A stretch of 64,000 nucleotides of DNA from Bacilli bacterium (GTDB taxonomy: Bacteria > Bacillota_I > Bacilli_A > RF39 > UBA660). The DNA lies in contig JAFRIS010000032.1 in NCBI GenBank assembly GCA_017432665.1, positions 11,759 to 75,758 of the forward strand, in the 5' to 3' direction. The notes beneath the pieces were generated by a model. That model was not told the DNA's origin and did not search any database. It saw only the letters and a program-made list of their open reading frames with translations. The first letter of the stretch is position 1. Each line of letters opens with the position of its first letter. Made by a program: the position numbers and the translations under genes. Of the stretch, positions 12,193 through 54,646 are shown piece after piece.

Positions 12193-12438
12193 ATGGTGAA
12201 AAATATGTTAGATTTTGATGAGGAATATGGATATTTAAAAGTTGAATCTCTAGAAGACTTGGAAAAAAGATATCGAGCTCTAACTGAAGAAAGAAATAGT
12301 TGTGAGAGATTTTTACAAAATAGTAATATTCGTACTGAAACCAAAAATGATGTTTATAATGATTTAATGTATTTTGATGACTTAATTAATCATATAGAAC
12401 TAATAATGCAAGAAAGAGAAAGTGAAAAAACTATTTAA
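12193..12438 (+). CDS. Small hypothetical protein
   Basis: 81-aa ORF between its own TGaTATAAT promoter and its own terminator. Confidence 0.4.
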   Translation: MVKNMLDFDEEYGYLKVESLEDLEKRYRALTEERNSCERFLQNSNIRTETKNDVYNDLMYFDDLINHIELIMQERESEKTI

Positions 12439-35956: not shown

Positions 35957-37984
35957 GTGGATAGAGTAGAGAGCGAAGAATTTATACCAATGGAAGAATA
36001 TTCCAAGGAAACAATTGATAATTTACTTGAATTTATCAAAAAAGAAAAAAACATCTCTCAAGTAGCTAGTGTTTTAGAATTAAGCCCGTTCGAGATACTA
36101 GGTTTAGTACATGATTTGAGAGATAGTGGATTCAATATTATCGTAAAAGAATATGATGATGGATTCCATTTACTTAATCAAGGTGATCAAACTAATAATG
36201 AACATAGTCATTATGAATTTGAAACTGATGAGAACAATGAATTTAAATTTGTAGCTATTTCTGATGTAAGATTAGGTGCTAAATCGCAACAATTAGCTAT
36301 CTTGAATGATATTTATAAAAAAGCTAAAGAACAAGGTATTCATAATGTTATTGTTTGTGGTAATATTTCTGCAGGGTTAAAGCCGATAACCGATACAGAT
36401 ACTAATTTTATAGATGATACTCAGGCACAGATTGATTATATTGTGAATAATTATCCAAGAGTAGAAGGAATTAATACTTATTTTATTTCAGGTAAATTAG
36501 ATAATACACATTTAACTAAGAACAAAATTAATATAGGGCAAAGAATAGCTTCTCAAAGATCAGATATGATTTATTTAGGAGAAGATGCTTGCGATATTGA
36601 TATTGATAGAATAAAGATGCAGGTAATGAGTAGTAAGCTTAGTAAAACTTATACTGCGTCATATCGTACTCAACAAACAATAGATGCTTATCGTAGTGAA
36701 GATAAACCAGATGTTTTAGTTTATGGTGGATTACTTCAAATGGAGAAATATAATTATCGTGATGTTAAATGTATTTCTACACCAAGTGTTTGCGCAACTG
36801 ATAAAGAGATGAAGACTAAGAGATATGCTAATACTATTGGTGCTTGGTATGTTACTTTAAAAGCTAAAGAAAATGGTAAATTAGACCATATAACTGCGAT
36901 TGATTCACCATACTATGTAACTAATAAGAAAGATTATCAAGGTACCAATATTTCTTCTAATATGAATAAAAAAACACCAGATATGGATAGTGCAAGTATT
37001 CAAACAGCTTTAAAAACACTTAAGTATGTTAAGAATGGTATGCCTATTGATACATTTATGTCAAAGTTCCATATTAGTTATAAAGAATTACAGGGTTTAC
37101 TATTAATATGGGAAAGTTGTAATAAAAAAGTGGATATTGTTCCAGACGGAAAAGAAATGGTCTTTAAAAAGAACTATCAAAGATCAGTATCCATGAGTAA
37201 ACCTAGCCTAGATAGTTTAATCGAAAATGAAATATTAGTTGTATCAGATACACATTTTGGTAATATTCATAATCAATTACATTTATTAAATGATTTATAT
37301 GAAGAAGCATATAAAAGAGGAATAACTACTGTTCTTCATGTGGGTGATATGACTGATGGTAATTATCTAGAGAGAAAGGAAAGTCCTAGACAACAATTCT
37401 TACATGGTTTTGATGAACAAGTAGGATATGTAGTTGATATGTATCCAGAAATTGATGGAATGGAAACTTTCTATATTTTAGGTAGCCATGATGAAACCCA
37501 TTATAAAAATGGTGGTGCTACTGTTAGTAAATGGGTTGATAAAAATCGTAAAGATATGCATTATTTAGGACAAGATACAGGTGAATTTATGCTTGACAAG
37601 GTAAAGATTGTTTTAGATCATCCAGGAGGAGGTTCTTCTCAATCAGTATCTTATAAACCACAAAAGAGAATTGAAATACTTGAATCACATATTAAGCCAA
37701 AGATATTATTAATTGGTCATTATCATAAATCATATGCTTTTGTTTATCGTAATGTTCAGTGTATTGAAGTACCTGCTTTATGTGCTAAGACTCAATTTCA
37801 ACAAAAACAAGGTTTAATAAATAGTATGGGTGGATATTTCTTGAAGATATATTCTGATAAAAAAGGAAATATTCAATACTTAGAGCCGGAAGAAGTTGTC
37901 TATGATCATAAAGATATTTGGGATGAAGCTGGTAAAGATAAGAGAAAAGTTAAAAAATTAGAAATTAAACATGGAATTTATTAA
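35957..37984 (+). CDS. Internally duplicated (HTH-like + calcineurin-type metallophosphoesterase) x2 protein; only the second half is catalytically intact
   Basis: GTG start with GGGGAGG SD. C-terminal half has VVSDTHFGN, HVGDMTDGN, GSHDETH, DHPGGG, GHYHKS. N-terminal half is collinear with these residues replaced. Confidence 0.7.
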   Translation: MDRVESEEFIPMEEYSKETIDNLLEFIKKEKNISQVASVLELSPFEILGLVHDLRDSGFNIIVKEYDDGFHLLNQGDQTNNEHSHYEFETDENNEFKFVAISDVRLGAKSQQLAILNDIYKKAKEQGIHNVIVCGNISAGLKPITDTDTNFIDDTQAQIDYIVNNYPRVEGINTYFISGKLDNTHLTKNKINIGQRIASQRSDMIYLGEDACDIDIDRIKMQVMSSKLSKTYTASYRTQQTIDAYRSEDKPDVLVYGGLLQMEKYNYRDVKCISTPSVCATDKEMKTKRYANTIGAWYVTLKAKENGKLDHITAIDSPYYVTNKKDYQGTNISSNMNKKTPDMDSASIQTALKTLKYVKNGMPIDTFMSKFHISYKELQGLLLIWESCNKKVDIVPDGKEMVFKKNYQRSVSMSKPSLDSLIENEILVVSDTHFGNIHNQLHLLNDLYEEAYKRGITTVLHVGDMTDGNYLERKESPRQQFLHGFDEQVGYVVDMYPEIDGMETFYILGSHDETHYKNGGATVSKWVDKNRKDMHYLGQDTGEFMLDKVKIVLDHPGGGSSQSVSYKPQKRIEILESHIKPKILLIGHYHKSYAFVYRNVQCIEVPALCAKTQFQQKQGLINSMGGYFLKIYSDKKGNIQYLEPEEVVYDHKDIWDEAGKDKRKVKKLEIKHGIY

Positions 37985-38007
37985 AAGCACTTCAAGTGCT
38001 TTTTTTT
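37984..38007 (+). terminator. Intrinsic terminator
   Basis: AAAGCAC-ttcaa-GTGCTTT plus an 8-T run. Confidence 0.8.
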
Positions 38008-38133
38008 ATAAAAATGTAGCATCCTTATTTGTAAAGTGTTGCAATTATATGTAAAATTTATTTAATAAACTTGAAATTGAAATAATGATTTGATACGATT
38101 AAAATGTAAAAATAAGATAGAAGGAGATTTTTT

Positions 38134-38721
38134 ATGGAAAAGAAAAGAAATAGTCAAACAATTATTATTGCGGTTTTAGCAGTGGCCGTATTATTTATGT
38201 CAATTGGTTTCGCTGCATTCTCACAAACTTTAAATATTCAAAGTAGTGTTGATGTAGCAGAAGCTAAATGGGATATCCATTGGGATACTTCATCATATGC
38301 AAAATCTGCAGGAAGTGTAGATATTTTAAATCCATCAAAGACAGCTAATTCAAGCCCAACTTTAACTAACACAGATATTAGTTTTGGAGCTAAATTAGAA
38401 AAACCTGGAGATTACGCTGAATTTACAGTGAACGCAGTTAATGCTGGTACTTTTGATGCTAAATTAACAGCAATTACTATCTCACCAGAATTAACAGCTG
38501 CACAACAAAAATATTTAAGTTATACTGTAACTTATGCTGGAACAGAATATCATACATCAACAAGTGGTTTAAATGTTTCGTTACCAGCTAAATCATCAAA
38601 TACTGTAACTGTAAAAGTAAGAGTTGATTATAATCAACCAACTAATGCAGCAGATTTACCATCAGCTGATACAACAATCGCTGCAACTATTTCATTTGAT
38701 TACGAACAAGCTACAAATTAA
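38134..38721 (+). CDS. TasA/camelysin-like secreted fibre subunit with SipW-type signal peptide
   Basis: ..VLFMSIGFA|AFSQTLNIQSS parallels the TasA ..GGGTWA|AFNDIKSK cleavage region. LEKPGDYAEFTVNAVNAGTFDAKL parallels TasA LKPGDKLTKDFQFENNGSL. Strong AGAAGGAG SD. Confidence 0.75.
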   Translation: MEKKRNSQTIIIAVLAVAVLFMSIGFAAFSQTLNIQSSVDVAEAKWDIHWDTSSYAKSAGSVDILNPSKTANSSPTLTNTDISFGAKLEKPGDYAEFTVNAVNAGTFDAKLTAITISPELTAAQQKYLSYTVTYAGTEYHTSTSGLNVSLPAKSSNTVTVKVRVDYNQPTNAADLPSADTTIAATISFDYEQATN

Positions 38722-38750: not shown

Positions 38751-39887
38751 ATGAAAAAAAATATTAAAGTTATATACTGTATAGAATTGGCGTTATTACT
38801 TGTAAACTTAATATTTTATGGACTTATAAAAGTGATACCTAGTAAGTATAATATATATCTAGTTATCACTTTCTTGCTATTAATGGTTGTTCCATTAAGA
38901 CTCTTTTTTGGCAAGCAAAAAAACAAGAGTTATTACGCAGGATATACAAACAGAACAATAATTACTGTTTTAATGATCATGGGAATGATTATCTATGCTT
39001 TGGGATTAATCCTTAATTTTGGAAAAGGATATGGATATAATTCTCAAGCATTAATAAGTGCATTATCAGTAACTTCTTTAGTATTAGTAATGGAATATTT
39101 TAGAATGCTTGTAATTAAGAATAGTTATAGTAATGTAAAAACTATAATTATCTTTACAGTATTACTATCTGCGTTAGAAATATTTGCTAATACTGGTATT
39201 GGTACATTAAATTCATCATATAGAATATTTATCTATATTAGTAAAGTTATCATACCAATATTAGCAGAAAACTTTTTGTGTACTTATTTAACATATAAAG
39301 TAGATATAGGACCTAGTTTAATATTTAAACTAACGGTTAGTTTATATATGTATTTATTACCAATTGTTCCTAATCTAGGTGATTATTTGCTTTCTGTTGT
39401 AAAAATATTAACGCCATTTATAATATTTTATATTATTAATAGGGCATTGGTTGAAGAAGAAAAGAGTAAAAGAATTATTACTAACAATACATTAAAAGTA
39501 TTTAGTATTCCAATTATTGTGGTTTTAGTAATGCTAGTTATCTTAGTATCAGGTGTTTTTAAGAATAAGTTAGTTGCTATTGCTTCTAATTCAATGGCTC
39601 CAACATATTATCGTGGAGATGCAATTATATTAGAAAAAATGAAACCTGAAGATCTAAGAAAAGGTGATATTCTAGTATTTGAACGAAGTGATAGAATTAT
39701 TACACATAGAATAGTTGATATTAAGAAGAAACAAGATACATATTACTTTACCACTAAAGGTGATGCTAACAAGAGTGCTGATGGTTATGTTAGTACTAGT
39801 GATGATGTAATTGGAAAAGTAGATTATGTGGTAAAATACGTTGGCTTTCCAACTATATTAGTTAATGAATTGTTTGAGAGGAGTTAG
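38751..39887 (+). CDS. Fusion: ~270-aa polytopic membrane domain + archaeal/ER-type (SipW-like) signal peptidase I
   Basis: C-terminal IASNSMAPTYYRGDAIIL..GDILVF..IITHRIV..TTKGDANKSADGYV gives the Ser, His and Asp boxes of S26B peptidases. About 8 TM segments precede it. Confidence 0.8.
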   Translation: MKKNIKVIYCIELALLLVNLIFYGLIKVIPSKYNIYLVITFLLLMVVPLRLFFGKQKNKSYYAGYTNRTIITVLMIMGMIIYALGLILNFGKGYGYNSQALISALSVTSLVLVMEYFRMLVIKNSYSNVKTIIIFTVLLSALEIFANTGIGTLNSSYRIFIYISKVIIPILAENFLCTYLTYKVDIGPSLIFKLTVSLYMYLLPIVPNLGDYLLSVVKILTPFIIFYIINRALVEEEKSKRIITNNTLKVFSIPIIVVLVMLVILVSGVFKNKLVAIASNSMAPTYYRGDAIILEKMKPEDLRKGDILVFERSDRIITHRIVDIKKKQDTYYFTTKGDANKSADGYVSTSDDVIGKVDYVVKYVGFPTILVNELFERS

Positions 39888-39893
39888 GCTATT

Positions 39894-40940
39894 ATGAAGA
39901 CTATAAACAAAGTTATTAGAATTATCATATTAACTTTTTTACTAGTTGCTGGAACAGCACTAATTGTTTTTGGTCTAACTAAAAGTTATATTTCTCTTAA
40001 ATATAAAGAGAATAATTCACTAGAATATAAAGTTTTTCTAAAAAAGAATAATTATTTTGATACAGCTTATTTAGGAGAAAATAGAACTTATATTACTAGT
40101 ATTATTGATTATATAAAAATAAATTATCATTATAATTTAAATTTTAGTGAAAATGTTAATGGGGATTATACTTATCGTATTGATGCTGTTGTTTTAGCTA
40201 ATAAGCCAAATGGAAAAGATGGATATTATTGGCAAAAAGAGTATAATTTAGTAGAACCTAAAACATTAAAACTAAATAATGTAAATGCTATTTATATTAA
40301 TGAAATAGTAAAGGTGGATTATAGTAAATATAATAAGATATTAGAAGGATTTACTAAAGATTATTCTATTGAAACAGATGGACAATTAAAAATACAATTA
40401 GTAGTTGAAAGTAATGTAACTGGTGAAAAGTACACTGATACTATTAAAGTTCCATCTAATCTTAATTTAAAGATACCATTATTACAAAAAGCAGTAGAAG
40501 CTTCAATTGAAAAGAATGCTGTAAGTAATGATAGTGTTTTAACAATGGTTGATCCAATAGCTAAGAAGTTTAAACTAATATGTTTATTATTAGGTATTAC
40601 AATAATTATTCTTACTGTTGTATTAATTATTAGGATTATTATTAATAGAAATATTAATCGTCAAACTCATTTATACGCTTCTACATTAAAGAAATTTGTA
40701 GATTCTCATGATAGTATTATTGCAAATGTTACTAATCTACCTGATATAAGTGATTTAAGCTTAGTTAAAGTTAGTTCATTTGATGAATTAATTGATGTTT
40801 ATAATGAAGTAAGAATGCCTATTAACTTCTATGAAAATAAAGAACACACTAAGGCAACATTTAGAATTATAAATGATCGTATGTGTTGGGAATATGTCTT
40901 AGATAAAGACATAATAGAAAAGAAAAAACGTAGAAAATAA
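39894..40940 (+). CDS. Bitopic membrane protein (TM - ~200-aa outside domain - TM - ~100-aa cytoplasmic domain), fibre-locus accessory
   Basis: TM segments IIILTFLLVAGTALIVFGL and LICLLLGITIIILTVVLIIRIII. I recall a DUF5305-type family next to SipW genes, but this is unverified. Confidence 0.5.
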   Translation: MKTINKVIRIIILTFLLVAGTALIVFGLTKSYISLKYKENNSLEYKVFLKKNNYFDTAYLGENRTYITSIIDYIKINYHYNLNFSENVNGDYTYRIDAVVLANKPNGKDGYYWQKEYNLVEPKTLKLNNVNAIYINEIVKVDYSKYNKILEGFTKDYSIETDGQLKIQLVVESNVTGEKYTDTIKVPSNLNLKIPLLQKAVEASIEKNAVSNDSVLTMVDPIAKKFKLICLLLGITIIILTVVLIIRIIINRNINRQTHLYASTLKKFVDSHDSIIANVTNLPDISDLSLVKVSSFDELIDVYNEVRMPINFYENKEHTKATFRIINDRMCWEYVLDKDIIEKKKRRK

Positions 40941-40959: not shown

Positions 40960-43380
40960 ATGAAGAGAAAGAAAAATAAGAATTCAAAGGATTATCGTGT
41001 AATTAGATTGAGTTTATTTCTTTCTCTTTTTTTCGTGTTTATTTTTATTGGAATATCAGTAGGATTTGCTCTATATACACAAGTTATTAATATTAATAGT
41101 AGTATTGGAGTAGATACTCAAGGAGCTTTTGAAATAACTAATGTTACTAAAACTAGTTCAAGTAATACTAGTGAAGCAGTACCTAGTTGGACTGCTGATT
41201 CAATTGATTTTAATTTAACATTTATTAAGAGTAATGAAGCTAGTCCAGTATATAGTGCTACTTATAATGTTACTTTAAAGAATGATACTTTCTTTGAAAG
41301 GTTAGTTTCAGCATTTAATTTTAATTTTACTGTTAATGATTCAAATGATCAGCCTATGGGTGTATTAGATTATGAAATAACTGGTATGGAAGAGGGAGAA
41401 GTAATGCAACCTCTTACAGAAAAGATAGTAACAGTTACTTTTACTTTTGTACCTACAGTAGATGCAAATGAGTATGAAGTTGACGGTAGCGGAACAGTTG
41501 AGTCAAATGAAAAACCAGCTGGTACAATTACGGTTAATTCTATGACTCCAGCAACAGGTAGTGTTAAAGATGGAGCACTACAACAAGTAACTATTAGTCT
41601 TAATAGTACTTATGCTGAAGCAAAAACATTTAATATTAGTATTGCCAGTGATAAATTAGAATTAGTAACTGCTGGGGGAACACCTTTAGGTACTTTTAAC
41701 ATAGCTGCTAACTCAGAAAATCAAAGTTATACTTTTTATATTAAAGCTAAAGATGATGCGTTATTCCCTGATGATACTATTACAGCAAGTCTTTCAGCTA
41801 TTTCAACAGGACTTCCTATAGTCAGATTGGGAAATATTACTTTAGATGTAAATAAACATGAAGAATATAATGATACAACTCCACCAGTTATTAGTAATTT
41901 AACTGCTACAATGAGTAATGAAGTAGGAGTAGTTAATTTAACATGGGATGGTACTGATGATTATAGTGGTGTTAAGAATTATACGATATTAGTGTGTAGT
42001 AACAATGGTAATGTTTTAAGAACTATTGATGCAGGTACTAATACTAGTTATGCAGTAAATGATTTAAGTAATGGTACGCAAGCAAATACTTATAATTTTA
42101 AAGTATATGGTACTGATAATGAAAATAATACAGCTAGTAATAGTGATATTAATAATGCAGGTACAGGTAGTGGTTATTGTGTAGCTACGGGAAATAATTC
42201 ATATCAATGGGTATATACTGTTACTAGAACACTAAACAATTTAAGTAGTAGTGGAGAAAATACCGCTAATATAGGAAGTACTTATACTTGTACTTTAACT
42301 GCTAATAATAACTATAGTTTACCTAATACAATTACAGTTAGAATGGGTAATAGAAACTTAACAGTTAATAATGGTTATACATATAATGCTAATAATGGTA
42401 GAGTTAGTATTCCTAATGTTGATGGTAATATTACAATTACTGCTAGTGGAAATAGGACGGGTATTTGTTTAATAGAAGGTACAAAAATCTTAATGGCTAA
42501 TGGAAAATATAAGAATATTGAAGATATTGGTTATGATGATCTAATGGCAGTATGGAGTTACAATACAGGAAGTTTAGTATATGAATATCCTATATGGATA
42601 GAATCTACTAGTGTTGAAGATAAGTATCAACAAACAACATTCTCTGATGGTACAACTCTAAATACATCAGGAGATCATGGTATATATAATTATGATTTAG
42701 GAATGTTTGTTTCAATAGAAGATAGAGAATACTTCAATGTAGGGAGTACGGTTGCTAAAGTCAAGAATGGAAAAATAAAGAAAGTTAAAGTTACTGATAT
42801 TAGAACTATCTATAAAGAAGTAAAACTATATCATGTAATATCATCATATTACTTTAATATTATTTCTGATGATGTTATTACTACTGATCGTAATCTTATG
42901 ATTTCTAATCAATATGGCTTTACAAGTAATATTACATGGCCTAATAAAAATCAGTATAAAGTAAAGAATGACCCTAGTCATTTATATACTTATGATGATT
43001 TTAAAGATATTATGCCATATTATATATTTAAAGGATTAAGAGTTGATGAAGGTAAATACTTAGTAGATATTGGATTGATATCTCACGAAGAATTAAAAAT
43101 GTATTTATACTTATATCCAGCTAATCCAGATTATTATAGACCAGTAGAAACAAATAAAGATGGCAAAAGAATGTGGATGGTTACTACTTCTAAAGATAAA
43201 GTAACTGATAAAAACAAATATAAATATAAGGTAGAAGAAGGATCTATTTATCAATTAAAGAAGAATAAGAAAATAAAATGTTATCGTAACAGCATTGATA
43301 ATAAGTGTTATAAACCTGGTAGTAAGATCAAAGTTTATTCAGGAATGCACTTTACAGTTGAATATAAGAATAATAAATAG
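40960..43380 (+). CDS. 806-aa secreted protein: TasA-like N-terminal signal/strand + beta-rich domains + FN3 + Hint (intein-like) domain + unknown C-terminal module
   Basis: GISVGFALYTQVININSS mirrors the 38134 product. FN3-like PPVISNLTAT..VNLTWDGTDDYSGVKNYTI..YNFKVYGTDNENN. Hint block starts at Cys503 (GICLIEGTKILMANG). Confidence 0.7.
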   Translation: MKRKKNKNSKDYRVIRLSLFLSLFFVFIFIGISVGFALYTQVININSSIGVDTQGAFEITNVTKTSSSNTSEAVPSWTADSIDFNLTFIKSNEASPVYSATYNVTLKNDTFFERLVSAFNFNFTVNDSNDQPMGVLDYEITGMEEGEVMQPLTEKIVTVTFTFVPTVDANEYEVDGSGTVESNEKPAGTITVNSMTPATGSVKDGALQQVTISLNSTYAEAKTFNISIASDKLELVTAGGTPLGTFNIAANSENQSYTFYIKAKDDALFPDDTITASLSAISTGLPIVRLGNITLDVNKHEEYNDTTPPVISNLTATMSNEVGVVNLTWDGTDDYSGVKNYTILVCSNNGNVLRTIDAGTNTSYAVNDLSNGTQANTYNFKVYGTDNENNTASNSDINNAGTGSGYCVATGNNSYQWVYTVTRTLNNLSSSGENTANIGSTYTCTLTANNNYSLPNTITVRMGNRNLTVNNGYTYNANNGRVSIPNVDGNITITASGNRTGICLIEGTKILMANGKYKNIEDIGYDDLMAVWSYNTGSLVYEYPIWIESTSVEDKYQQTTFSDGTTLNTSGDHGIYNYDLGMFVSIEDREYFNVGSTVAKVKNGKIKKVKVTDIRTIYKEVKLYHVISSYYFNIISDDVITTDRNLMISNQYGFTSNITWPNKNQYKVKNDPSHLYTYDDFKDIMPYYIFKGLRVDEGKYLVDIGLISHEELKMYLYLYPANPDYYRPVETNKDGKRMWMVTTSKDKVTDKNKYKYKVEEGSIYQLKKNKKIKCYRNSIDNKCYKPGSKIKVYSGMHFTVEYKNNK
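42466..42894 (+). other. Hint/bacterial-intein-like domain inside the 806-aa protein
   Basis: N-terminal C-LIEGTKILMANG, block-B-like TSGDHGIY, C-terminal LYHVISSYYFNIISDDVITTDRN. There is no HN+Cys/Ser/Thr splice junction. Confidence 0.65.
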
Positions 43381-43388
43381 GAGGTATT

Positions 43389-44408
43389 ATGAAATACTTA
43401 TTAATTGCTATTATAGTTGGTGTAATTATTAAAGTGATTAGGGACAAGCAAAATACTAGTAATAAAAAAATAAAAGATATTAATAATTTCACAATCTATG
43501 CTATTAAAGATTATGTAATAATTTTGGATATTGCTACTATATTTTTCTTTGCGTTAGCAGTATTTGCTATTAATCCAAGTGATGAAAGTCAAAAGTTTAT
43601 TTGGATTGCATTTGTTTTATGGGGATTTTTATCTTTACTAGGATCATTGGCTATTAGAAAAAAGATAGTTTTTAAAAACGATACTATTACAGTAAAAAAG
43701 GTTTTATTACCAAGTTTTAAAAAATATAGTATTAAAGATATTACTAGAGTAGAAAAATCAGAACAATTCTTTAAAGTATATAGTAATGATAAATGTATTT
43801 TTACTTGTGATAATGATTTAATTGGATATGATGCTGCTTTAAAAAGATTTGAAACAGAAGGTATTAAAATCACTGGATATAAAGGAAGATTATTAACTAA
43901 GAAAAGCATGTTGCATAGTCAAATATTATTATTTACTTCTTTACTCTTTTTCGTTTTAGTCTTTTGTTTTGAAATTCCTTTAATTCTTCAAGAACCAACA
44001 TTTAAAACGGTGTTAGATTCTCTTTTGGTAGGTGTAGTAATAATTGGTATACCAATGGGATTATTATACTTATGGTTTGTACCTAGAGGCTATTTTCAAA
44101 TATCTAAAATAGAAAAGGCTTTAAATATTGATTTTGATGATGAAATGAAAAAGTTGGATGTTACTGATAAACAATTTATTAATAATGATTGGTTTATTGA
44201 TATTCCTGCTAGGATGATAACTTATCCAATTATTTATCATAAAAAATATATAAAATCGTTAGATGAATTCAAAAAAGAAGAAGATAGAGAAGACTATACT
44301 ACGATGATAGAAACCATAGATGGAGTTCAAAAAATACATTTTTATAGTTACAGTAGTAGATGTCAATTTGAAGATTGGTTTAAAGGAATTTCATCTAAAA
44401 AACATTGA
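43389..44408 (+). CDS. Polytopic membrane protein with two soluble inserts, unknown function
   Basis: 8-nt gap after the Hint protein gene. 5 TM segments. The segment after TM3 (IVFKNDTITVKK..YSIKDITRVEK) reads like a bacterial PH-type domain, but this is unverified. Confidence 0.45.
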   Translation: MKYLLIAIIVGVIIKVIRDKQNTSNKKIKDINNFTIYAIKDYVIILDIATIFFFALAVFAINPSDESQKFIWIAFVLWGFLSLLGSLAIRKKIVFKNDTITVKKVLLPSFKKYSIKDITRVEKSEQFFKVYSNDKCIFTCDNDLIGYDAALKRFETEGIKITGYKGRLLTKKSMLHSQILLFTSLLFFVLVFCFEIPLILQEPTFKTVLDSLLVGVVIIGIPMGLLYLWFVPRGYFQISKIEKALNIDFDDEMKKLDVTDKQFINNDWFIDIPARMITYPIIYHKKYIKSLDEFKKEEDREDYTTMIETIDGVQKIHFYSYSSRCQFEDWFKGISSKKH

Positions 44409-44458
44409 CAATTAGAAATTATGATATAATATTATATATATAATAAAGGAGTATGATT

Positions 44459-46012
44459 ATGGAAGAAAATAACAAAGAAAACATTGAAGAAGTAAATGCT
44501 GAGCAATCAGTAGATGTTCAACCAGTTGAAGAAAATCAAGCGCCAGTTGAAGCTGCACCAGTTGAACCAGAAACAACACCAGTTGAATCTACACCAGTAG
44601 TAGAGGCAGCACCTGCTGCTACAGAAGCACAACCAGAAGGATCAGAACCAATGGTCGCAGAAGACAAGAAAGGAAATAAAGGACTTTTAGTTGGAGGAAT
44701 AATTTTAGCAATTCTTGCTATAGGATTCCTAGTAGTGTTCTTATTCCCTGGAATCTTAATAAGTAAGAAAGCAATTGTATCTAAAGAAGCAGGGTTGTTT
44801 TTCACAGAAGCAAGAAAAGTATTAGATAAAGCAGAAAAGAATACTTTAAAATATGATTTTGAAAAAGATGCAATAGGATTAAGTGGAAGTATTACATTTG
44901 ATTCAGATTATAAAGATAAAGATGTAGATTTAACTAAATTAAAAGATTATTCTATCTCATATAAAGGTGTAATTGATAAAAAGGGTAATCAAGCAAGTGT
45001 TGGATTAGGACTAGATGGAACAAAATCAATTGTTGATGCTAATGCAATGATGAAGGGTAAAGAAGTATTCATTAATTTAGGAGATTTATATAGTAAAACA
45101 CTATACACACAAACAGAGCAAGAAGTAAAAGACTTAGAAATAAGTAGTGTTACTGTTGATGATATTAGATTATTAGTTAATAAAACTGAAACAGTAATTA
45201 ATGAAAATATTAAGAATGAAGATATTACTCAAGAAAAAGTTAAACAAAATGCTAGTGGCAAAAAAGGTAATTTTACAAAGACAGCATATAAAGTAGATGT
45301 AAATGCTTACACTGAAAAACTAATTGAAGCATATAAGAGTGATTCAGAAGTAGTAGATGTATTAACTCGTCTATCTAACTCTACTGAAAAAGAAGTTAAA
45401 GCACAATTAGATGAAGCATTAAAAGAAGTAAAGAAAGCAGAAAAAAGTACATTTGATCTTAATATGTATTCTTCAGGATTAATGTCTAAATCAAAAGAAA
45501 TGGAAATAGTTGCTGATGGAGAAAAAATTATAATTGATGTAGAAGGAAAAGTATATAATTATAAAGCTGTAGATAGTAAAGGTAAAGAAATATTATCTGG
45601 TGTATATGATACTGCTAAACAAGAATTTTCATTTAAAGCAGAAGATGAAGGTGTAAAAGTAGAATATAGCATGAAGAGTGAAAATGATAATAAAATTACT
45701 GGTAAACTTTCAGCTGTTACTGGACAAGATGAAGTAGAAGCAACATTTGAAATTAGCAATAAGATTTCAGGTAAGAGTGCTGATACTGCTGTAACCGCTA
45801 CTGTTAATGTTAAGGGTAGTCAAAAGTTTAGTTTTAAAGTAAAAGCAGATTCTAAGACTACTGTAGGATCTAAAGTAGAAGATATTAGTACTAGTAACAC
45901 AGTAAGTATTGACAAATTGTCAGAACAAGATATGAATAATATTTATATGAAATTAATGCAAAAATTACAACCAATAATTATGGAAGTAGCTCCTGGAGCT
46001 TTTGCAAGTTAA
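44459..46012 (+). CDS. Single-pass membrane protein: acidic Pro/Glu/Val/Ala-rich N-terminus, TM, ~420-aa outside domain
   Basis: I prefer the ATG at 44459 (AAGGAG SD spacing). VEENQAPVEAAPVEPETTPVESTPVVEAAPAATEAQPEG, then LLVGGIILAILAIGFLVVFLF. Confidence 0.5.
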   Translation: MEENNKENIEEVNAEQSVDVQPVEENQAPVEAAPVEPETTPVESTPVVEAAPAATEAQPEGSEPMVAEDKKGNKGLLVGGIILAILAIGFLVVFLFPGILISKKAIVSKEAGLFFTEARKVLDKAEKNTLKYDFEKDAIGLSGSITFDSDYKDKDVDLTKLKDYSISYKGVIDKKGNQASVGLGLDGTKSIVDANAMMKGKEVFINLGDLYSKTLYTQTEQEVKDLEISSVTVDDIRLLVNKTETVINENIKNEDITQEKVKQNASGKKGNFTKTAYKVDVNAYTEKLIEAYKSDSEVVDVLTRLSNSTEKEVKAQLDEALKEVKKAEKSTFDLNMYSSGLMSKSKEMEIVADGEKIIIDVEGKVYNYKAVDSKGKEILSGVYDTAKQEFSFKAEDEGVKVEYSMKSENDNKITGKLSAVTGQDEVEATFEISNKISGKSADTAVTATVNVKGSQKFSFKVKADSKTTVGSKVEDISTSNTVSIDKLSEQDMNNIYMKLMQKLQPIIMEVAPGAFAS

Positions 46013-46020
46013 ATATAAAA

Positions 46021-46042
46021 AGTAGATTTTAATCTACTTTTT
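46021..46042 (+). terminator. Intrinsic terminator
   Basis: AGTAGAT-ttta-ATCTACT plus T run. Confidence 0.75.
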
Positions 46043-46068
46043 TTGTATAATGTTACCTAGGTGATTTT

Positions 46069-46914
46069 ATGAAGACATGTTTAGTTTTAGAAGGTGGAGG
46101 CTTAAGGGGTATATATAGTGCTGGAGTCTTAGATGAAATGTTTAAAGATAAAATTAAAGTAGATGCTATTATAGGTGTATCTATGGGAGCTTTAGTAGGT
46201 ATCAATTATAAGTCTAAACAACCGGAGAGAGCTATTAGATATAATTTAAGATATTGTGATGATAAAAGATATATTGGTCTTCGTAGTTTATTAAAAACAG
46301 GTAATATTGCTAATAAAGAATTTGCTTATTATAAAGTGCCCAATGAATTAGATAAATTTGATTATGAAACTTATAAAAAATCTAAAATTAAGATGTATAT
46401 TACTGCAACTAATATAGAAACAGGAGAAGCAGAGTATATAGAAGTAAAAGATGCTACTGATAACATTGAATATTTTAGAGCTAGTTCTTCAATACCGGGA
46501 GTGTCTAGAATAGTGGAAATAGGTGATAAAAAATACTTGGATGGAGGAATGGCTGATTCTATTCCGATCAAAAAAGCTTTGGAACTAGGATATGATAGAG
46601 TAATAGTTGTTTTAACTAGGCCAATAGAATATCGTAAAAAAGATTCTAAAATGAAATGGCTACAATCTCGTTATAAAAAATATCCTAAATTTCAAAAGTT
46701 AATAGCTACTAGAAATAAAAGATATAACGAACAAGTAGAAGAAATATTAAAGTTAGAAAAGAAAAACAAAATATTTTGTATAAGACCAAGTAGAAGTATA
46801 AAAATAGGCCGAATGGAAAAAGATGAAAGAACTATTTTAAAACAATATAATCTTGGCAAAGAAGATTACTTAAATAGAAAAAGTGATTTAAAAAAGTATT
46901 TAAAAAAGAAATAG
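46069..46914 (+). CDS. Patatin-like phospholipase
   Basis: GGGLRG oxyanion box, GVSMG (GxSxG), DGG catalytic Asp motif. Confidence 0.85.
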   Translation: MKTCLVLEGGGLRGIYSAGVLDEMFKDKIKVDAIIGVSMGALVGINYKSKQPERAIRYNLRYCDDKRYIGLRSLLKTGNIANKEFAYYKVPNELDKFDYETYKKSKIKMYITATNIETGEAEYIEVKDATDNIEYFRASSSIPGVSRIVEIGDKKYLDGGMADSIPIKKALELGYDRVIVVLTRPIEYRKKDSKMKWLQSRYKKYPKFQKLIATRNKRYNEQVEEILKLEKKNKIFCIRPSRSIKIGRMEKDERTILKQYNLGKEDYLNRKSDLKKYLKKK

Positions 46915-47050
46915 AAACATTTCTTTTTTATTTTTTATGGTGAACTTTTTTAATACATTTAAAATAGACAGTTTTTGTCTTGTTTTATCTATATTTTTAT
47001 TGTAAAAAAGTATGAAAACTGATATATTTATAATAGAAGGGATAGATGAT

Positions 47051-50008
47051 ATGAAAAGGAGTTTTAAATTATTTAGTTTAGTACTATTACTTGCTATTTT
47101 ATTTTTACCATTTAATGTAAATGCAGAAGAAGTAATACATTTTAATTTACCATCAGCACCAGTTGTTGGTGAAACGGCTTCTACTATAGCAAGTAATCAA
47201 TATATTGATGTTGAAGACCAATATTGGGTTAATTTTTCAGAACATAGATTAATGACTGCTAACGAAACATTCGCCGCTGATAAAGTTTATGGTTATTTTA
47301 TTAATTATTCTTTAAAAGATAACATCGAGTATGATTGGTTTACAGATTTGGTTTTGAATCCGTATTGTTATGAATCATTAGATGTTGATAACGATGGAGA
47401 TAAACATGCAGAAGCATATTTTTATATGGGTAAGATTAGTGAAGCATTAGGTCCTACTGATGCTGATAAATATCAAATTGATATTGATGCACCAGAATTG
47501 GGAGAGACTCAACCACTTGCTAGAACAAATAGTAAATATACTATCCTTGATCAAGCATGGGAAAATGTAACAGATGATCATCCAATGCGAACAGAAGAAG
47601 AGTTTGAAGAAAATAAGTGGTACAAATATACGATTACAGTTAAATCATTTTATTTTGCGGATGGTACTGATGTGTTTAGAGCATTTAATGGTGCAGGGGA
47701 TGCATATTTAGGAATGGATCAACGAGACTCTAAGTATGATGTGGCTCCTAAGACAATTAATGGATATTTCTATTTTGGTGATACATCTGGTTTCTTAATT
47801 AGTACATCAGATGTAATAATTAGAGAAGATCATCCACCAGTAATTGGAGGAATATTAACAGTGCCACAAATGGCTCTTACCGGTACTGTGGAAGCTTCTG
47901 CCAAGTGGGAAGTTCTTGAGGGCGATGAATTTGTCGATGCTGAAGTAAATGAAGAAGTAGTAGCAGGAAAAACATATAGATTTGTTTTAGAATTAATTGC
48001 TGCTCCCGGTTATCATTTTGCCGATGATTTTGAAGTGTTAGATGAAAATAGAAATGCAAATTTTGTTGATAGAGAAGGTCACATTGAAGAAGGAAATAAA
48101 TATATATACACTTCAACATTTGTAATTTTACCTGAAGGATCAACGATTGGTATTGTTGGTGATGACCTTATTTATCCGGGAGAAACAACACAATTAACAG
48201 TTTTCCCAACTAATGATGTTAATGCTAATGTAACATGGTCAAGTAGTAATAACGCAGTCGCAACAGTAGATCAACAAGGAAATGTTACTGGTGTTGCTTC
48301 TGGTACAGTATATATTACTGCAACAAATAGTATTAATGATTTTACTACTTTTGAAATGACTATTGGAGTACCAGTTGAAGATATTGAAGTACAATCTAGT
48401 GAAATAACATTGTATGTTGGTGATTCTCAACAATTGAAGGCTGCGGTTTTACCAGATGAGGCTACTAATCAAGGTATTAGTTGGGAATTAGATTTAGATT
48501 TAGGTCATCAATATGGAGATGATTACAATCCTGATGCTGCTATATTAGTGGGAGATCGCATATATGCTCAGGAAGAAGGTGTAATTAAAGTCTTTGCTAT
48601 CGCTGACTATGATGATAGTATTAGAGTACCAGTAACAATTACTGTTATTCCTAGACCAATTGATGTAGAAAGTGTATCTTTTGAACGAAATAGATTTGAA
48701 ATATATGAAGGTGAAAGTGTAGTTTTATCACCAATAGTACTTCCAGAAAATGCTACTGATAAAACATTAGCTTGGAGTTTTGAAGGAACTAGTTATGTTA
48801 GTTTTAATCCAAGTACTTTAACTGCTACAGGAATAAAAGAAGGTACTGGTCGTATAATTGCTAGATCAGTTAATAATATAACTGCTACATGTACTGTGAT
48901 TGTTAAGAAGAGACCACCTGAAGCAGAGGAAATAACTTTCCAAGATCAAACATTAGAACTTGGAGTAGGAGAAACAAAAACATTAACAGTAAATATTGTT
49001 CCAGAAAATGCATTAGTTGAATCTATTACTTGGTCAAGTGCTGATTCTACTATTGTTTCAGTAACCGATGCAGGTGTTATTGAGGCATTAAAAGAAGGAA
49101 CAACTACAATAAAAGCTAGAACAAATAAAGGATTAGAAGCAACATGTACTGTAACAGTATCTAATATTGTAGCAGTTACTAAAATAAGACTAAATAAAGA
49201 AGAAACAACTTTAACAGTAGGTGAAAGTGAAACGTTAACTGCTACACTTACACCAAGTAATGCAACTGATAAAACAGTTATTTGGACATCTGATCATCCA
49301 GAAATTGTTACAGTTAATAACGGAGGAAAAATCACAGCTGTTAAAGCTGGAACAGCTATGATTGTCGCTGAAGCATCTAATGGAAAGAAAGCTACTTGCT
49401 TTGTAACAGTAAAATCAGCAGCACCAGTTCAAGAAATTAGTTTTCCAGATGTTTCTAAAAGCAGTTGGTATTATGAAACAATAAAAACAGCTTATAACAA
49501 AGGAATAATTGCAGGGTATGCATCTGGTGAGTTTGGACCAAACGATAAAATTACAAGAGGACAATTAGTAACGCTTCTTTGGAGATTAGATGGAAGTCCA
49601 AGTGCAGCATCATATTCTAATAAATTTAGTGATGTAAATGTAAGTCAATATTATGGAGCTGCAGTAAAATGGGCGGCAGCAAAAGATATTGTACATGGTT
49701 ATGGTACTGCAGCTGGTAAGTTCGGACCGAACAATTATATAGTTAGACAAGATTTAGCAATTATCTTATATAACTATGCAAGATATAAAGGATTAGATTT
49801 AACTGCTAGTGGTAATCTGTCTGGGTTTGCTGATTACAATAAAGTAAAAGGAAATTATTCAGAAGCAGCATTTAAATGGGCTGTTAAATATAACATAATA
49901 AGCGGTAAAAATATTAAGAATAAGAAATATTTAGAGCCGGGAAGTAATACAACTCGTGCAGAAGCAGCAGCTATGATAGTCAATTTTGCAAATGCATTTG
50001 ACATATAG
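47051..50008 (+). CDS. SLH-anchored surface protein: 3x novel N-terminal module + 5 Big_2 domains + 3 SLH domains
   Basis: I prefer the start at 47051 (MKRSFKLFSLVLLLAILFLPFNVNA signal). Big_2 pattern ..TWSSSNNAVATVDQQGNVTGVASGTVYITAT. SLH pattern FPDVSKSSWYYETIKTAYNKGIIAGY..FGPNDKITRGQ. Confidence 0.85.
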   Translation: MKRSFKLFSLVLLLAILFLPFNVNAEEVIHFNLPSAPVVGETASTIASNQYIDVEDQYWVNFSEHRLMTANETFAADKVYGYFINYSLKDNIEYDWFTDLVLNPYCYESLDVDNDGDKHAEAYFYMGKISEALGPTDADKYQIDIDAPELGETQPLARTNSKYTILDQAWENVTDDHPMRTEEEFEENKWYKYTITVKSFYFADGTDVFRAFNGAGDAYLGMDQRDSKYDVAPKTINGYFYFGDTSGFLISTSDVIIREDHPPVIGGILTVPQMALTGTVEASAKWEVLEGDEFVDAEVNEEVVAGKTYRFVLELIAAPGYHFADDFEVLDENRNANFVDREGHIEEGNKYIYTSTFVILPEGSTIGIVGDDLIYPGETTQLTVFPTNDVNANVTWSSSNNAVATVDQQGNVTGVASGTVYITATNSINDFTTFEMTIGVPVEDIEVQSSEITLYVGDSQQLKAAVLPDEATNQGISWELDLDLGHQYGDDYNPDAAILVGDRIYAQEEGVIKVFAIADYDDSIRVPVTITVIPRPIDVESVSFERNRFEIYEGESVVLSPIVLPENATDKTLAWSFEGTSYVSFNPSTLTATGIKEGTGRIIARSVNNITATCTVIVKKRPPEAEEITFQDQTLELGVGETKTLTVNIVPENALVESITWSSADSTIVSVTDAGVIEALKEGTTTIKARTNKGLEATCTVTVSNIVAVTKIRLNKEETTLTVGESETLTATLTPSNATDKTVIWTSDHPEIVTVNNGGKITAVKAGTAMIVAEASNGKKATCFVTVKSAAPVQEISFPDVSKSSWYYETIKTAYNKGIIAGYASGEFGPNDKITRGQLVTLLWRLDGSPSAASYSNKFSDVNVSQYYGAAVKWAAAKDIVHGYGTAAGKFGPNNYIVRQDLAIILYNYARYKGLDLTASGNLSGFADYNKVKGNYSEAAFKWAVKYNIISGKNIKNKKYLEPGSNTTRAEAAAMIVNFANAFDI

Positions 50009-50032
50009 AACCAATAAATTGGTTCTTTTTTC
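49169..50032 (+). repeat. Paralogous 3' block, copy A (last Big_2 + SLH triplet + terminator)
   Basis: Collinear with 53735-54597. 51-nt identical run 49462-49512 = 54035-54085. Same AGAACCA..TGGTTCT terminator. Confidence 0.85.
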
Positions 50033-50090
50033 TTTTTTAAATTGTATAAATAAAAAAAAATTGTTATATTTATAATAGAGGGATGATGTT

Positions 50091-53000
50091 ATGAAAAAAT
50101 ATTTTAAACTATTATACTTGATATTATTAACAGCATTAATCTTACCATTTGGGGTAAGAGCAATAGGGGAAGGAGGAGCTGGAGAAGCACTTTATTTAAC
50201 GTTGCCATCTGCACCAGAAATTGGTCAAGCACCAACAATATTTGCTGGGCATGAAGGAATAACAGTTCTTAGTGATCGATGGATAAATGTCACTGAACAT
50301 AGAGAAATGTTAAACAATGAAACGTTTGCAGCTGATAAAGAATACGCTTATATTGTAAATTATATTAACAATACTAATTTAACTGAGTATTGGTTTGCAG
50401 ATATACAGGAAAATTCTTCTTATTGTATAGGAAACAATATATATGATCCTCCAACAACTTTGTATCCTAATGAAAAAATGGCAATAGTAAGGTTCTATAT
50501 GGGTGATTTCAATGATATGCCAGCACCTACTGAAGATGATTATTACTATATAGATATTGATACTCCTGAATTAGGAGAACAAGCACCTTTAGCTAGGAAT
50601 AATAGTAAATATACTATTGTCAGTCAATCTTGGAAGAATATAACAGATAATCGTGATATGACTAGTAGTGATGTCTTTGAAGAAGATAAATACTATGTAT
50701 ATACAATTAATGTACAATCCTATTATGTTGCTCCTCATAGTATTGATTCACTTTTTGATAGTGAATACTGTAAAGGATTAAGATTTACTGGAGAAATACC
50801 ATATTCAGAAACAATTAATGGATATTTCTATTTTGGCGATGATGAATCTAATTTAGTAATAAATACAGGAGATGTAGTTATTAATCAATCAAATCCACCA
50901 GTCGCAGGAGAAACATTATCTATGCCTAATGTTACTGTTGCTGATACTGTAATATCTCATGGTGAATGGTCAGTTAAAGATGGGGAGTATTTCAATTATC
51001 TTTCTGAATTACCTGAGGTAGAAGTTGGTAAAGTATATAGATATGTATTAAATTTGGAACCATTATTTGGATATCATTTTGCTGATGATTTTAAAGTGAT
51101 TGATAATAATAAAAATATTAATTGGATAAGATCTGATTACAGTACATATGATTATAATGATACATTTACATATGAATCATTATTTAGTCCATTACCAGAA
51201 GGAACCAGTATGGCAATTTATGGTGATGAACTTATTTGGCCAGGATATACAACTACAGTATCTGTTTATCCTGTTAATGATGCAAATGCTAATATAACAT
51301 GGTCAAGTAGTAATCAAAATATAGCCACAGTAGATCAAGATGGAATTGTAGAAGGTATAGCTCCTGGGAACGTAACAATTACTGCAACTAATAGTCTTAA
51401 TGAATCAACTACATTTGATATAACAGTTGGTATACCGATTGAATCAATAGAAGTACAAACAAATGAAATAACTATGTATCCTGGAGATAGTCAACCTCTA
51501 AGATATGCAGTAGAACCAGAAAATGCTACTTACCAAGAAGTACAATGGCAGCCTGACATGCCTAATGATGAAGATGGTGATGATTATAATCCATATGCCG
51601 CTTGGGTAAATGATGAAGGAGTATTATATGCTTCGGAAATAGGAACAGTTAGAATTATAGGTCAATCACCAGATCCCGAACAAGCAAGTGCAACAGTATT
51701 AGTTCATGTTGTTGCAAGACCAATTGAAAGTATGGAATTCGCAGAAGGAGATAGCATAACTAGATATGTAGATACAACATCTGATTTACCTCTAAATGTT
51801 ACTCCAGCAAATGCTACTATTACAGGAATTACTTATGAAAGTAGTGATCCAACTGTAGCGATAGTCAATGAAGATGGGGAAATAGTTACTAAGGCATTAG
51901 GAACTACAACAATAACTGCAACAGCACCAAGTGGAGCAACTGCAACATGTACAGTAACTGTTATTGAAGATGATCCAGTAGAAATAACATCAATTACATT
52001 GGATAAAACAGAAATGACCTTAGTAGTGGGAGAAAGTGACTTTTTAGGATTTACATATGAACCAAGTGAAGCTGCAATATTTGCTTCATATACAAGTAGT
52101 AATCCTAGTGTAGCTACTGCAGATCCTAGTGGAGAAATAGTAGCGGTAAGTCCAGGAACAGCTATTGTTACAGTGTCTTCTGGAAATGTTTCAGCAACAT
52201 GTACAGTAACGGTGGTACCACAATTAACTGGAATTGAATTAAATAAAGCAACGCTTACATTAACTGAAGGTGAAAGTGAAACATTAGTAGTTTCTCCAAT
52301 CCCAAGTGGAGCAAACGTTCCACCTGCTGTTTGGACAAGCAGTGATCCTAGTGTATTTACTGCTGATGAAACTGGTTTAATAGTAGCTAATCATCCAGGA
52401 ACAGCTACATTAACTGTATCAGTTGGAAATAATATTTCAACAACATGTACAGTAACAGTACTATCTTCAGAAGTACAAGCAACAGGAATTACATTAAATA
52501 AAACAACTCTTACTTTAGAAGAAGGAGATATTGAAACATTAGTAGCTACAGTTATACCTGCTAATGCAACAAATAAAACTGTAACATGGACAAGTAATGA
52601 TCCAAGTATAGCTAGTGTAGATAGTAATGGATTAGTAACTGCTAGAGAAGATGGAACAGCTACTATAATTGCTAGAACTAATAATGGATTCACTGCCACA
52701 TGTGAAGTAACAGTACTTGATTATATATCAGTAAGAGATATTGAATTAAATAAAACAGCTATTACACTAGAAGTAAATGAGACTGAGACATTAGTGGCAA
52801 CTATTACTCCAGATGATGCAACCGATCAAACAATTAGATGGAGTTCTTCTAATGAGAATGTTGCTACTGTAGAAGATGGAACAGTAACAGCAGTTGGTGC
52901 TGGAACAGCAACTATTACGGTTACTTCAATTAATGGTTTAGAGGCAACATGCCAAGTAACAGTACCAGAACCTTATATAGAAGTAGAAGGTATTACTTTA

Positions 53001-54575: not shown

Positions 54576-54597
54576 AACCAAGAAATTGGTTCTTTTT
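53735..54597 (+). repeat. Paralogous 3' block, copy B
   Basis: See copy A. Confidence 0.85.
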
Positions 54598-54646
54598 CTT
54601 GGTCTTTTTGATATAATTATATTAGATATAATAAAGGAGTTGTCTT

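Follow-up and report, generated by a model that had tools for sequence, protein, structure and literature searches.

We report here on an 806-amino-acid (aa) surface-fibre protein, encoded by the open reading frame (ORF) at 40960-43380 (+) in a 64,000-nucleotide (nt) window of DNA from a Bacilli bacterium (contig JAFRIS010000032.1), in which residues 503 to 806 make up a Hint domain followed by a tail. This part of the protein probably serves as a C-terminal autoprocessing cassette of the bacterial intein-like (BIL) or Hog type, which would detach a mature accessory pilin at the bond Ile502|Cys503. The Hint domain is the best-conserved part of the predicted accessory pilin, it is joined to a previously undescribed tail, and it is tied to an operon with genes for a SipW-type signal peptidase and a DUF5305 protein. 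Both the Hint clade and its dedicated accessory tail are new, and so is the biological context, in which they are found with great consistency. Positions are those of the window, the whole 64,000-nt stretch that was analysed, which is low in GC (~27%) and carries nearly all of its genes on the + strand; residue numbers are those of the 806-aa protein.

The assignment of a genuine Hint fold to residues 503 to 645 (42466-42894, +) is established by a confident predicted model, by the structural matches of that model, and by profile matches in the family. The AlphaFold2 (AF2) model of residues 495 to 806 has a predicted local distance difference test score (pLDDT) of 92 and a predicted template modelling score (pTM) of 0.89. 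Foldseek returned 60 matches to it in the PDB at E≤1e-3, and the best 50 of the 60 are all Hint-fold structures, aligned over 142 to 153 columns with target template modelling scores (TMt) of 0.7 to 0.88. The top matches are to BIL2 (6tmm/6y75; E 3e-9, TMt ~0.8), followed by the C. thermocellum BIL domain 2lwy, the Hedgehog structures 1at0 and 6tyy (~1e-7), and many inteins and mini-inteins. At the sequence level the signal lies in the family: a search with residues 495 to 806 gave 18 relatives, every one of which spans both Hint domain and tail, and these and the 806-aa protein form the set of 19 sequences behind our family profile and behind the alignment from which the AF2 model was made. 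Hom_end_hint matches 12 of the 19 and Intein_splicing (PF14890) matches 7, at best with 6.7e-7, the 806-aa protein not being among these; Hint (PF01079) matches 8 of the 19, all of them relatives, with a best value of 2.7e-5 that is below threshold. With the family profile as query, the PDB yielded 8w20 (2e-4), described as an "intein C-terminal splicing domain" protein, and weakly also inteins and BIL2; a search of the PDB with the single cassette sequence gave nothing significant. In Pfam and NCBIfam, the 806-aa protein alone matches Hom_end_hint (E 0.0012 to 0.007) and intein_Nterm (E 0.03), all below threshold, and it scores 15.2 bits with TIGR01445, for which the cut-off is 24.5.

A sequence-only reading of this DNA had proposed a compact Hint fold of about 143 aa at this place, and fold, family profiles and conservation all bear it out. 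The landmarks it cited are present: the codon of Cys503 begins at 42466 in the context G-I-C-LIEGTKILMANG, the motif TSGDHGIY occupies residues 569 to 576, and the C-terminal strands LYHVISSYYFNIISDDVITTDRN span residues 623 to 645. It had named the lack of a Hint-profile match or of a predicted Hint fold as grounds for giving up the assignment; a Hint fold is predicted, and relatives match Hint-type profiles.

Conservation within the domain points to an active N-terminal nucleophile. A scan of one genome per GTDB species with a trimmed alignment gave 79 loci, 76 of them with the cassette, and these 76 species-level loci together with representative proteins (clusters at 50% identity) supplied 162 distinct cassettes, to which all residue counts refer. 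Although the cassettes diverge to ~30% identity, Cys503, His573, Lys518, and Asp527 are each invariant (162/162) and Asp563 is present in 161; Cys503 is the first residue of the domain in all 162. The linker in front of the Cys is short, rich in small residues, and variable, with G in 42, T in 39, S in 27, and I in 14 cassettes at position -1, and G, T, S, I, or A there in 131. The block-B motif Thr/Ser-x-x-His claimed for the TSGDHGIY segment is half upheld: the His is His573, and the Thr/Ser is not conserved, position 570 being V, A, I, or F in most relatives and sharing the Ser of the 806-aa protein in only 8 of the 162.

At the other end of the domain, past Asn633, the last strand reads VITT-D and lacks His-Asn. 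The absence of an intein-type junction, His-Asn followed by Cys, Ser, or Thr, had been noted from the sequence and is a trait of the family. Thr642-Asp643 align with the intein His-Asn pair, as in the BIL2 alignment, where T-D stands opposite H-N. Position 643 is D in 122 cassettes, Y in 14, S in 8, E in 6, and N in 3, and the +1 position, 644, is mostly G, E, D, or R (G 76, E 16, D 14, R 13, A 11, P 9, T 5). With no C-terminal Asn and no +1 nucleophile, the domain would therefore be a non-splicing Hint, equipped, to judge from its conserved residues, for an N-to-S acyl shift at its own N-terminus. We considered Asn650, in an S-N motif 7 residues past the last Hint strand, as a displaced intein Asn and rejected it as the main explanation because it is T-D that aligns with His-Asn and because Asn650 is followed by a hydrophobic residue; an atypical C-terminal cleavage at Asn650 or Asp643 is possible. 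An identity as an intein was likewise rejected: there is no His-Asn, no Cys, Ser, or Thr at +1, and no match to a curated profile, and the cassette sits at the extreme C-terminus with a self-contained tail.

A Hint domain that has lost its chemistry and persists at the C-terminus of a fibre protein for structural or binding purposes, with no processing, would have precedents among Hint-fold domains. It would fit the sub-threshold scores of the 806-aa protein in all curated Hint families, the missing block-B Thr and C-terminal motif, and the pTM of 0.89, which describes the cassette as a single rigid unit. In degenerate Hint domains, however, the nucleophile is usually lost. In this family the very pair of residues that the acyl shift requires, Cys503 and His573, stays unchanged in 162 of 162 cassettes, and Cys503 opens the domain behind a variable linker of small residues. 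We regard a purely structural Hint as very unlikely for this reason.

The distribution of conservation along the protein singles out the same domain. Averaged over 56 full-length orthologues and measured against the 806-aa protein, identity is highest in the Hint domain, at 52%, which makes it the best-conserved segment of the whole protein. The first 200 aa reach 27% and the middle of the protein 35%, and within the tail the helical part reaches 34% and the terminal domain 42%. The cassette is invariably C-terminal, with 228 to 331 aa from the Cys to the end of the protein. Ahead of it, residues 1 to 193 (40960-41538, +) comprise a signal anchor with a transmembrane (TM) helix at residues 19 to 37 (..VGFALYTQVININSS..) and a pilin-like domain, and residues 194 to 502 (41539-42465, +) form a stalk or passenger that ends in ..ITITASGNRTGI at the predicted scissile bond. 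The passenger sequence has no significant match in the PDB; Pfam gives a weak, sub-threshold fn3 match at residues 311 to 388 (E 0.0016), and a B-repeat-like domain of the passenger immediately precedes the Hint domain.

The tail, residues 646 to 806, is 161 aa long (42895-43380, +) and consists of two parts in the AF2 model. The first (646-730; 42895-43149, +) begins with a linker motif, S-N-x-Y-G-F..N..W, and continues as a helical subdomain, ~646 to 730, that bears a conserved P-x-Y-x-F-x-G-x-R-x-x-E motif. The second (731-806 and the stop codon; 43150-43380, +) is a beta-rich subdomain, modelled over ~731 to 803, that resembles Flg_new, the Listeria-Bacteroides or InlB B-repeat. The best-kept tail residues are Asn650 (155/162), Phe654 (152/162), Arg694 (138/162), and Glu697 (122/162). 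The joining segment S-N-x-Y-G-F..N..W has a pLDDT of 84 to 87 when modelled with the Hint domain and of 40 to 46 when the tail is modelled alone, and this fall upon removal of the Hint domain suggests that the segment packs on it. The tail had been described from the sequence as a Lys/Tyr-rich module of 160 aa with two Cys. That description suits this protein (16% Lys, 12% Tyr, isoelectric point [pI] 9.4, Cys774 and Cys783) but does not carry over to the family, in which tail pI ranges from 4.1 to 9.6 and most relatives have Trp or Tyr in place of Cys774 and Cys783; the basic, Lys-rich character and the Cys pair are confined to close relatives.

A profile built from the tail only, run exhaustively against 1.84e9 (1.84 billion) representative proteins, found 294 matches at E≤1e-3 and 192 at E≤1e-10. 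Among the matches listed (150 of the 294), most are proteins of 770 to 810 aa with the tail at the extreme C-terminus. We took from these 150, the 18 relatives, and the 806-aa protein itself the 114 proteins of at least 400 aa and looked for an accompanying Hint domain: 99 have C-x-x-x-G-[TS] 228 to 331 aa from the end, 7 have a variant Cys motif such as CLAY(N/D)T (106 with a Cys motif in total), 1 has a truncated Hint domain, and 7 are Flg_new multi-repeat proteins with no relation to the cassette. The tail thus appears to accompany this Hint clade invariably, save for the one relative with a truncated Hint. The seven repeat proteins were matched 7 to 13 times each, solely by the last ~47 positions of the profile, and the three of them that were scanned all match Pfam Flg_new (3e-87 to 2e-121), from which we conclude that the tail ends in a surface-protein domain of the Flg_new type, ~75 residues long; Pfam run on the tails alone places Flg_new directly on 1 of 17 (E 0.0023). 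The helical part has no Pfam match and no known fold or family. With the tail alone, the best Foldseek match in the PDB has an E of 0.95, and Pfam finds no toxin family; the weak Foldseek matches (ubiquitin-like, InlB B-repeat, T. ramosa IgA-protease) fit only the beta-grasp-like Flg_new domain. Two SipW-type proteins of ~720 aa, P0147 and P0160, end after the helical subdomain (..NQLNPNMYLP..) with no Flg_new-like domain and are either natural short forms or gene calls cut at contig ends.

The genes immediately upstream of the 806-aa gene, all on the + strand, provide the context for its function. The first (38134-38721) encodes a small pilin-like protein of 195 aa with a signal anchor (..IGFAAFSQTLNIQSS..) and one TM helix at residues 10 to 28. 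The second (38751-39887) encodes a 378-aa fusion of a polytopic part and a SipW signal peptidase I, with ~8 predicted TM helices (8-229) and a peptidase domain at residues 246 to 371 that matches TIGR02228 (2.2e-28, 99 bits against a cut-off of 51.85) and Peptidase_S26 (2.8e-7); the polytopic part (~245 aa) has no Pfam match. The third (39894-40940) encodes a 348-aa, TafG-like DUF5305 protein with TM helices at both ends (PF17231, 3.5e-12, 46.7 bits against a cut-off of 29). A terminator-like hairpin at 37983-38003, after an upstream metallophosphoesterase-like gene, and promoter-like sites at 38029-38118 likely mark the start of this operon; for promoters the scan is uninformative (55 sites against 59 expected).

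We called ORFs anew at the related loci and searched them with profiles of the neighbouring proteins of the window. Homologues of the 195-aa protein adjoin the cassette in 65 of 86 sources and a DUF5305 gene stands beside it in 63. The cassette has the full set of three partner genes within 9 kb in 54 of the 76 loci, nearly always in the order 165- to 250-aa pilin, ~378-aa SipW fusion, DUF5305 protein, Hint protein; 10 loci have a partial set, mostly at contig ends, and 12 have none, 5 of these belonging to a Clostridia clade and 4 lying at contig ends. The SipW fusion architecture, 374 to 390 aa long, is kept in ~55 related loci, including second operons without a Hint protein. Such a second pilin-polytopic SipW-DUF5305 operon, with no Hint protein detected, adjoins the operon that bears the Hint protein in loci L041, L046, L059, and L072, and the DUF5305 gene is enlarged (489 to 560 aa) in some of the second operons.

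The N-terminal part of the 806-aa protein (residues 1 to 193) is a paralogue of the 195-aa protein, with 25% identity over 195 aa including the signal region (BLASTP, E 2e-5), and the two have in common the signal anchor and a ..GFA.(F/Y).Q..NI.SS.. motif. The 195-aa protein has weak DUF11, LEA_2, and Peptidase_M73 profile matches, and its best profile matches in the PDB are AbpX and pilus proteins, at a non-significant E of 0.2 to 0.5. The small pilin family as a whole behaves similarly, with weak matches to Peptidase_M73 in 2 of 41, DUF11 in 17 of 41, and AbpX at E 0.22; in loci L001 and L004 the neighbouring small protein also has a weak Peptidase_M73 match.

DUF5305 corresponds to TafG, which in archaeal Tafi pili is proposed to act together with the dedicated signal peptidase TafD (PMC11821415, PMC12337348). 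These archaeal Tat-fimbriae are bundling pili assembled by donor-strand exchange like TasA, and their large, variable subunits TafC and TafF are regarded as structural (PMC11821415, PMC12337348). Because a dedicated signal peptidase together with DUF5305 is the signature of Tafi pili, the locus is best read as a bacterial fibre operon of the TasA/Tafi class, a class of recent characterisation in Bacillus (TasA) and archaea (Tafi and ABP), with the Hint protein as its putative large accessory subunit. The likeness to TasA/TapA/SipW and to Tafi and the archaeal bundling pili (ABP) extends over the SipW/archaeal-type peptidase (TafD), DUF5305 (TafG), the small pilin-like protein, and a larger accessory protein with a pilin-type N-terminus. 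Unlike in those systems, SipW is fused here to a ~245-aa polytopic domain and the TasA-like fold of the small subunit is matched only weakly; a Hint or other self-cleaving module on a subunit is not mentioned in the papers that we found. A literature search for Hint or intein-like domains together with SipW, TasA, Tafi, pilin, or donor strand gave no paper linking them, and a preprint on pili of candidate phyla radiation (CPR) bacteria mentions neither Hint nor a signal peptidase. The sequence-only reading overlooked the pilin-like N-terminus of the 806-aa protein, and it missed the conserved gene partners, which lie upstream.

The earlier proposal that the Hint domain either releases its flanking part or transfers it to a nucleophile is the best-supported framework for these observations. 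In the scheme that we consider probable, the precursor would be exported by Sec and held by its N-terminal signal anchor, and the operon's SipW-type peptidase would, by analogy with TasA and Tafi, free the pilin-like N-terminus for incorporation into the fibre. The Hint domain would fold outside the cell, where Cys503 would attack the Ile502 carbonyl and an N-to-S acyl shift would produce a thioester. Resolution of this thioester would part the ~450-aa mature passenger from the Hint-tail unit, and the tail would be a built-in accessory or retention module and not a toxin. Plain hydrolytic release is slightly more likely than transfer to a specific acceptor, a weak preference given that hydrolysis is the default of the characterised bacterial BIL domains.

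Transfer in the manner of a Hog domain, in which the thioester at residue 502 would be resolved by a nucleophile recruited by the tail, as the sterol and adduct recognition regions (SRR/ARR) do in Hedgehog proteins, is a possibility that we hold to be doubtful yet worth setting out. The candidate acceptors are a lipid, an amine of peptidoglycan or lipid II, another pilin (through a Lys or through its newly formed N-terminal amine), and some group on a target surface; the outcome would be an accessory pilin whose C-terminus is covalently anchored or ligated with neither sortase nor ATP. Transfer would account for the strict co-inheritance of the tail with this Hint clade, and it is consistent with the tighter constraint on the Hint domain than on the passenger. 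A Hint domain plus a helical region of ~70 to 85 aa with the Arg/Glu motif is common to two pilus classes, and this minimal unit parallels Hint plus SRR/ARR, the Hog domain (PMC2362128). BIL2, the best structural neighbour, makes Lys isopeptide bonds with its upstream domain (PMC8616854). The hosts, moreover, are all gut or rumen anaerobes, in which an extracellular Cys would presumably stay reduced. Set against these points, there is no sign of an acceptor, and the small pilin family, searched for an invariant Lys that could act as one, has none (its invariant columns are M, G, A, L, N, G, Y, Y, and P). Sortase-type substrates with PPVTG or PPKTG signals are already encoded by this organism and its relatives, and anchoring by surface layer homology (SLH) domains occurs as well; homology between the tail and the Hedgehog SRR is not detectable, nor does any structure match the tail; and the characterised bacterial BIL domains mostly just cleave.

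Several observations weigh against autoprocessing as we propose it. The 806-aa protein by itself falls below the threshold of every curated Hint family, and it has no block-B Thr, a residue that is missing from some active Hint domains as well. Its own -1 residue is Ile, and beta-branched residues at this position are generally known to slow the acyl shift in inteins. The Asp that occupies the Asn position in 122 of 162 cassettes would permit an atypical C-terminal cleavage, which is possible. Strict co-conservation of a 70- to 160-aa tail with the Hint domain is not explained by plain hydrolysis. That the 195-aa protein and the N-terminal domain are pilins is suggested by context and weak profile matches. 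Finally, the cleavage is inferred from conservation, and when it would happen, what would become of the thioester, and what the tail would do are inferred too.

By comparison with characterised Hint systems, the cassette would work like a B-type BIL or a Hog domain. B-type BIL domains have the intein motifs except the C-terminal one, cleave at their N-terminus, and occur in variable secreted bacterial proteins (Amitai et al. 2003 and Dassa et al. 2004, as summarised in PMC7765530). Our Hint likewise belongs to a non-conserved secreted or surface protein of bacteria, has the N-terminal Cys and block-B His, and lacks the canonical C-terminal motif, so that N-terminal cleavage without splicing would be expected, and 2lwy is among its top fold matches. 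In contrast to BIL domains, it is always terminal with one specific conserved tail, is locked to pilus operons, and is the most conserved part of its protein instead of lying within a hypervariable region; the likeness to the B type lies in the motif pattern and the class of protein. Hedgehog and Hog proteins resemble ours in their succession of signal peptide, passenger, Cys-Hint, and an accessory region of at least ~70 aa that travels with the Hint domain, in thioester cleavage at the N-terminus without splicing (predicted here), and in fold (1at0, 6tyy). They differ in having a G-C-F site, for which the 806-aa protein has Ile-Cys-Leu (Gly is at -1 in 42 of 162), and PF01079 stays below threshold; the tail here has no detectable relation to SRR and adds a Flg_new-like domain, and the protein is bacterial and extracellular. 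The cassette is thus not demonstrably a member of the Hedgehog family, since an above-threshold profile match and the cleavage motif are lacking and the tail shows no homology. BIL2, from the Tetrahymena BUBL1 locus (6tmm/6y75), is the best structural match, places its Hint between small beta-rich domains as ours does, and sets a precedent for a Lys amine that resolves a Hint thioester, with an isopeptide bond as the product. Unlike our Hint, it has a C-terminal Asn (N143), is cytoplasmic and eukaryotic, and is flanked by ubiquitin-like rather than Flg_new-like domains, and the sequence identity is ~18%. The Hint domains of polymorphic toxins (PT-HINT, PF07591) share a position near the C-terminus of a large surface or filament protein, from which they would free the downstream part, but the 806-aa protein has no PF07591 match, the module downstream is conserved, and no conserved immunity gene follows it.

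The polymorphic-toxin possibility had been raised in the sequence-only reading, with the tail as an effector freed by the Hint domain and the next gene providing immunity. That gene (43389-44408, +) encodes a 339-aa DUF6560 membrane protein (PF20197, 3.3e-9), and its description was accurate: it starts with ATG at 43389, 8 nt past the stop codon of the 806-aa gene, and specifies ~5 hydrophobic helices, taken as TM. An AGGAGG sequence ahead of it overlaps the stop codon, which together with the 8-nt gap suggests co-translation, and no terminator-like site was found in 43380-46200 that would separate the two genes, so the DUF6560 gene may be co-transcribed with the Hint gene. One Clostridial relative has a sub-threshold PT-HINT match (E 0.002), and the arrangement is stable in six metagenome contigs, all of the same species; it recurs in these same-species contigs only.

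No DUF6560 homologue was found in 85 related loci, and even the nearest relatives lack the gene. In L007 and L062, with 83% and 77% identity, the Hint gene is followed after 52 nt by a homologue of p519, the next gene after DUF6560 in the window. In L008, also a close relative, the slot is occupied by a gene (10950-12329, -) for a 459-aa SpaA-like protein with a PPKTG signal, which resembles by eye the SpaA-like protein of the window described below. More distantly related loci (L001, L004, and L006) have rpsO, a 113-aa ORF, or a 343-aa ORF without relation to DUF6560 at this place. The downstream ORF of L006 was considered as a DUF6560 homologue and discarded as unrelated (E 0.13). Since the slot is empty or otherwise filled throughout, we judge the DUF6560 gene to be a lineage-specific insertion at a variable spot, outside the conserved system as the comparison of loci defines it. 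The tail itself is family-wide and not swapped: its identity (34 to 42%) tracks or exceeds that of the passenger (27 to 35%), where an effector had been expected to vary among strains. Its C-terminal half is a Flg_new surface-repeat domain, its pI ranges from 4.1 to 9.6, and Pfam finds no toxin family in the tails. A toxin and immunity pair is accordingly the explanation to which we give almost no weight; profile, polymorphism, and immunity gene all speak against a PT-HINT toxin cassette, and comparative genomics corrects here what is a tempting annotation.

The family is sizeable, with 294 representative clusters matching the tail profile and ~75 species-level genomes carrying the cassette. 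It is known from metagenome-assembled genomes (MAGs) of uncultured Bacilli, "Tenericutes," and Erysipelotrichaceae of gut and rumen, and also from Clostridia and a small number of MAGs that bear the label Saccharibacteria. The closest relative, L007, is a rumen Erysipelotrichaceae MAG with 83% cassette identity. Five MAGs labelled Candidatus Saccharibacteria (L042, L047, L050, L051, and L057) have complete or nearly complete operons with Hint proteins of 806 to 856 aa and a cassette identity of 34 to 38%, which reflects either a real spread into the CPR or an error of binning.

A sister clade in Clostridia (L077 to L081, L086, and many short gene calls) has the same Hint domain with a helical tail of ~70 aa that keeps the motif ..YF.GLR.AE... 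Its proteins have a type-IV-pilin N_methyl N-terminus and Flg_new repeats before the Hint domain. In L078, where the cassette gene is present in two tandem copies, and in L086, a secA-like gene follows directly downstream. A search with a Hint-only profile gave solely proteins of at most 282 aa. Stand-alone Hint proteins were considered on account of such short lengths and rejected: P0179, the Clostridia-type example for which the surroundings were inspected, is the 3' half of a gene in L086 (7283-8744) that is split by a frameshift into overlapping ORFs of 251 and 247 aa. P0005, an apparent guanylate-kinase-Hint fusion on a 5-kb contig, is likely a chimera or a miscall.

Extracellular bacterial Hint domains are known, and their natural role is poorly understood; the cassette offers a testable system for it and bears also on how fibres that do not depend on sortase mature or are anchored. 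Transfer of the thioester, should it occur, would be a new chemistry of covalent anchoring or adhesion and possibly a tool for protein ligation. Such a bacterial Hog-like ligation module, in which the Hint domain would raise a thioester on a pilus subunit and the helical tail and Flg_new domain would choose the acceptor, seems to us improbable though far from negligible. If it exists, it would be a third route of covalent surface attachment in Gram-positive-type bacteria beside sortases and thioester domains (TED), a prokaryotic counterpart of the cholesteroylation of Hedgehog, and a means by which a donor-strand (TasA/Tafi-class) or type-IV-pilin-like subunit is anchored or made adhesive.

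Other surface proteins are encoded on both sides of the operon. At 33957-35243 (+) lies the gene for a 428-aa SpaA prealbumin-like protein with an internal TED and a sorting signal composed of PPVTG, a hydrophobic stretch, and a basic end; sortase-type anchoring and covalent-adhesin chemistry are therefore already present in this organism. Downstream, 47012-58468 (+) is a surface-protein island with consecutive genes for three giant proteins of 998, 1494, and 1273 aa, which have Big_2 repeats and C-terminal SLH domains, and the 1273-aa protein also has a Flg_new repeat and a match to the papain-like Peptidase_C1.

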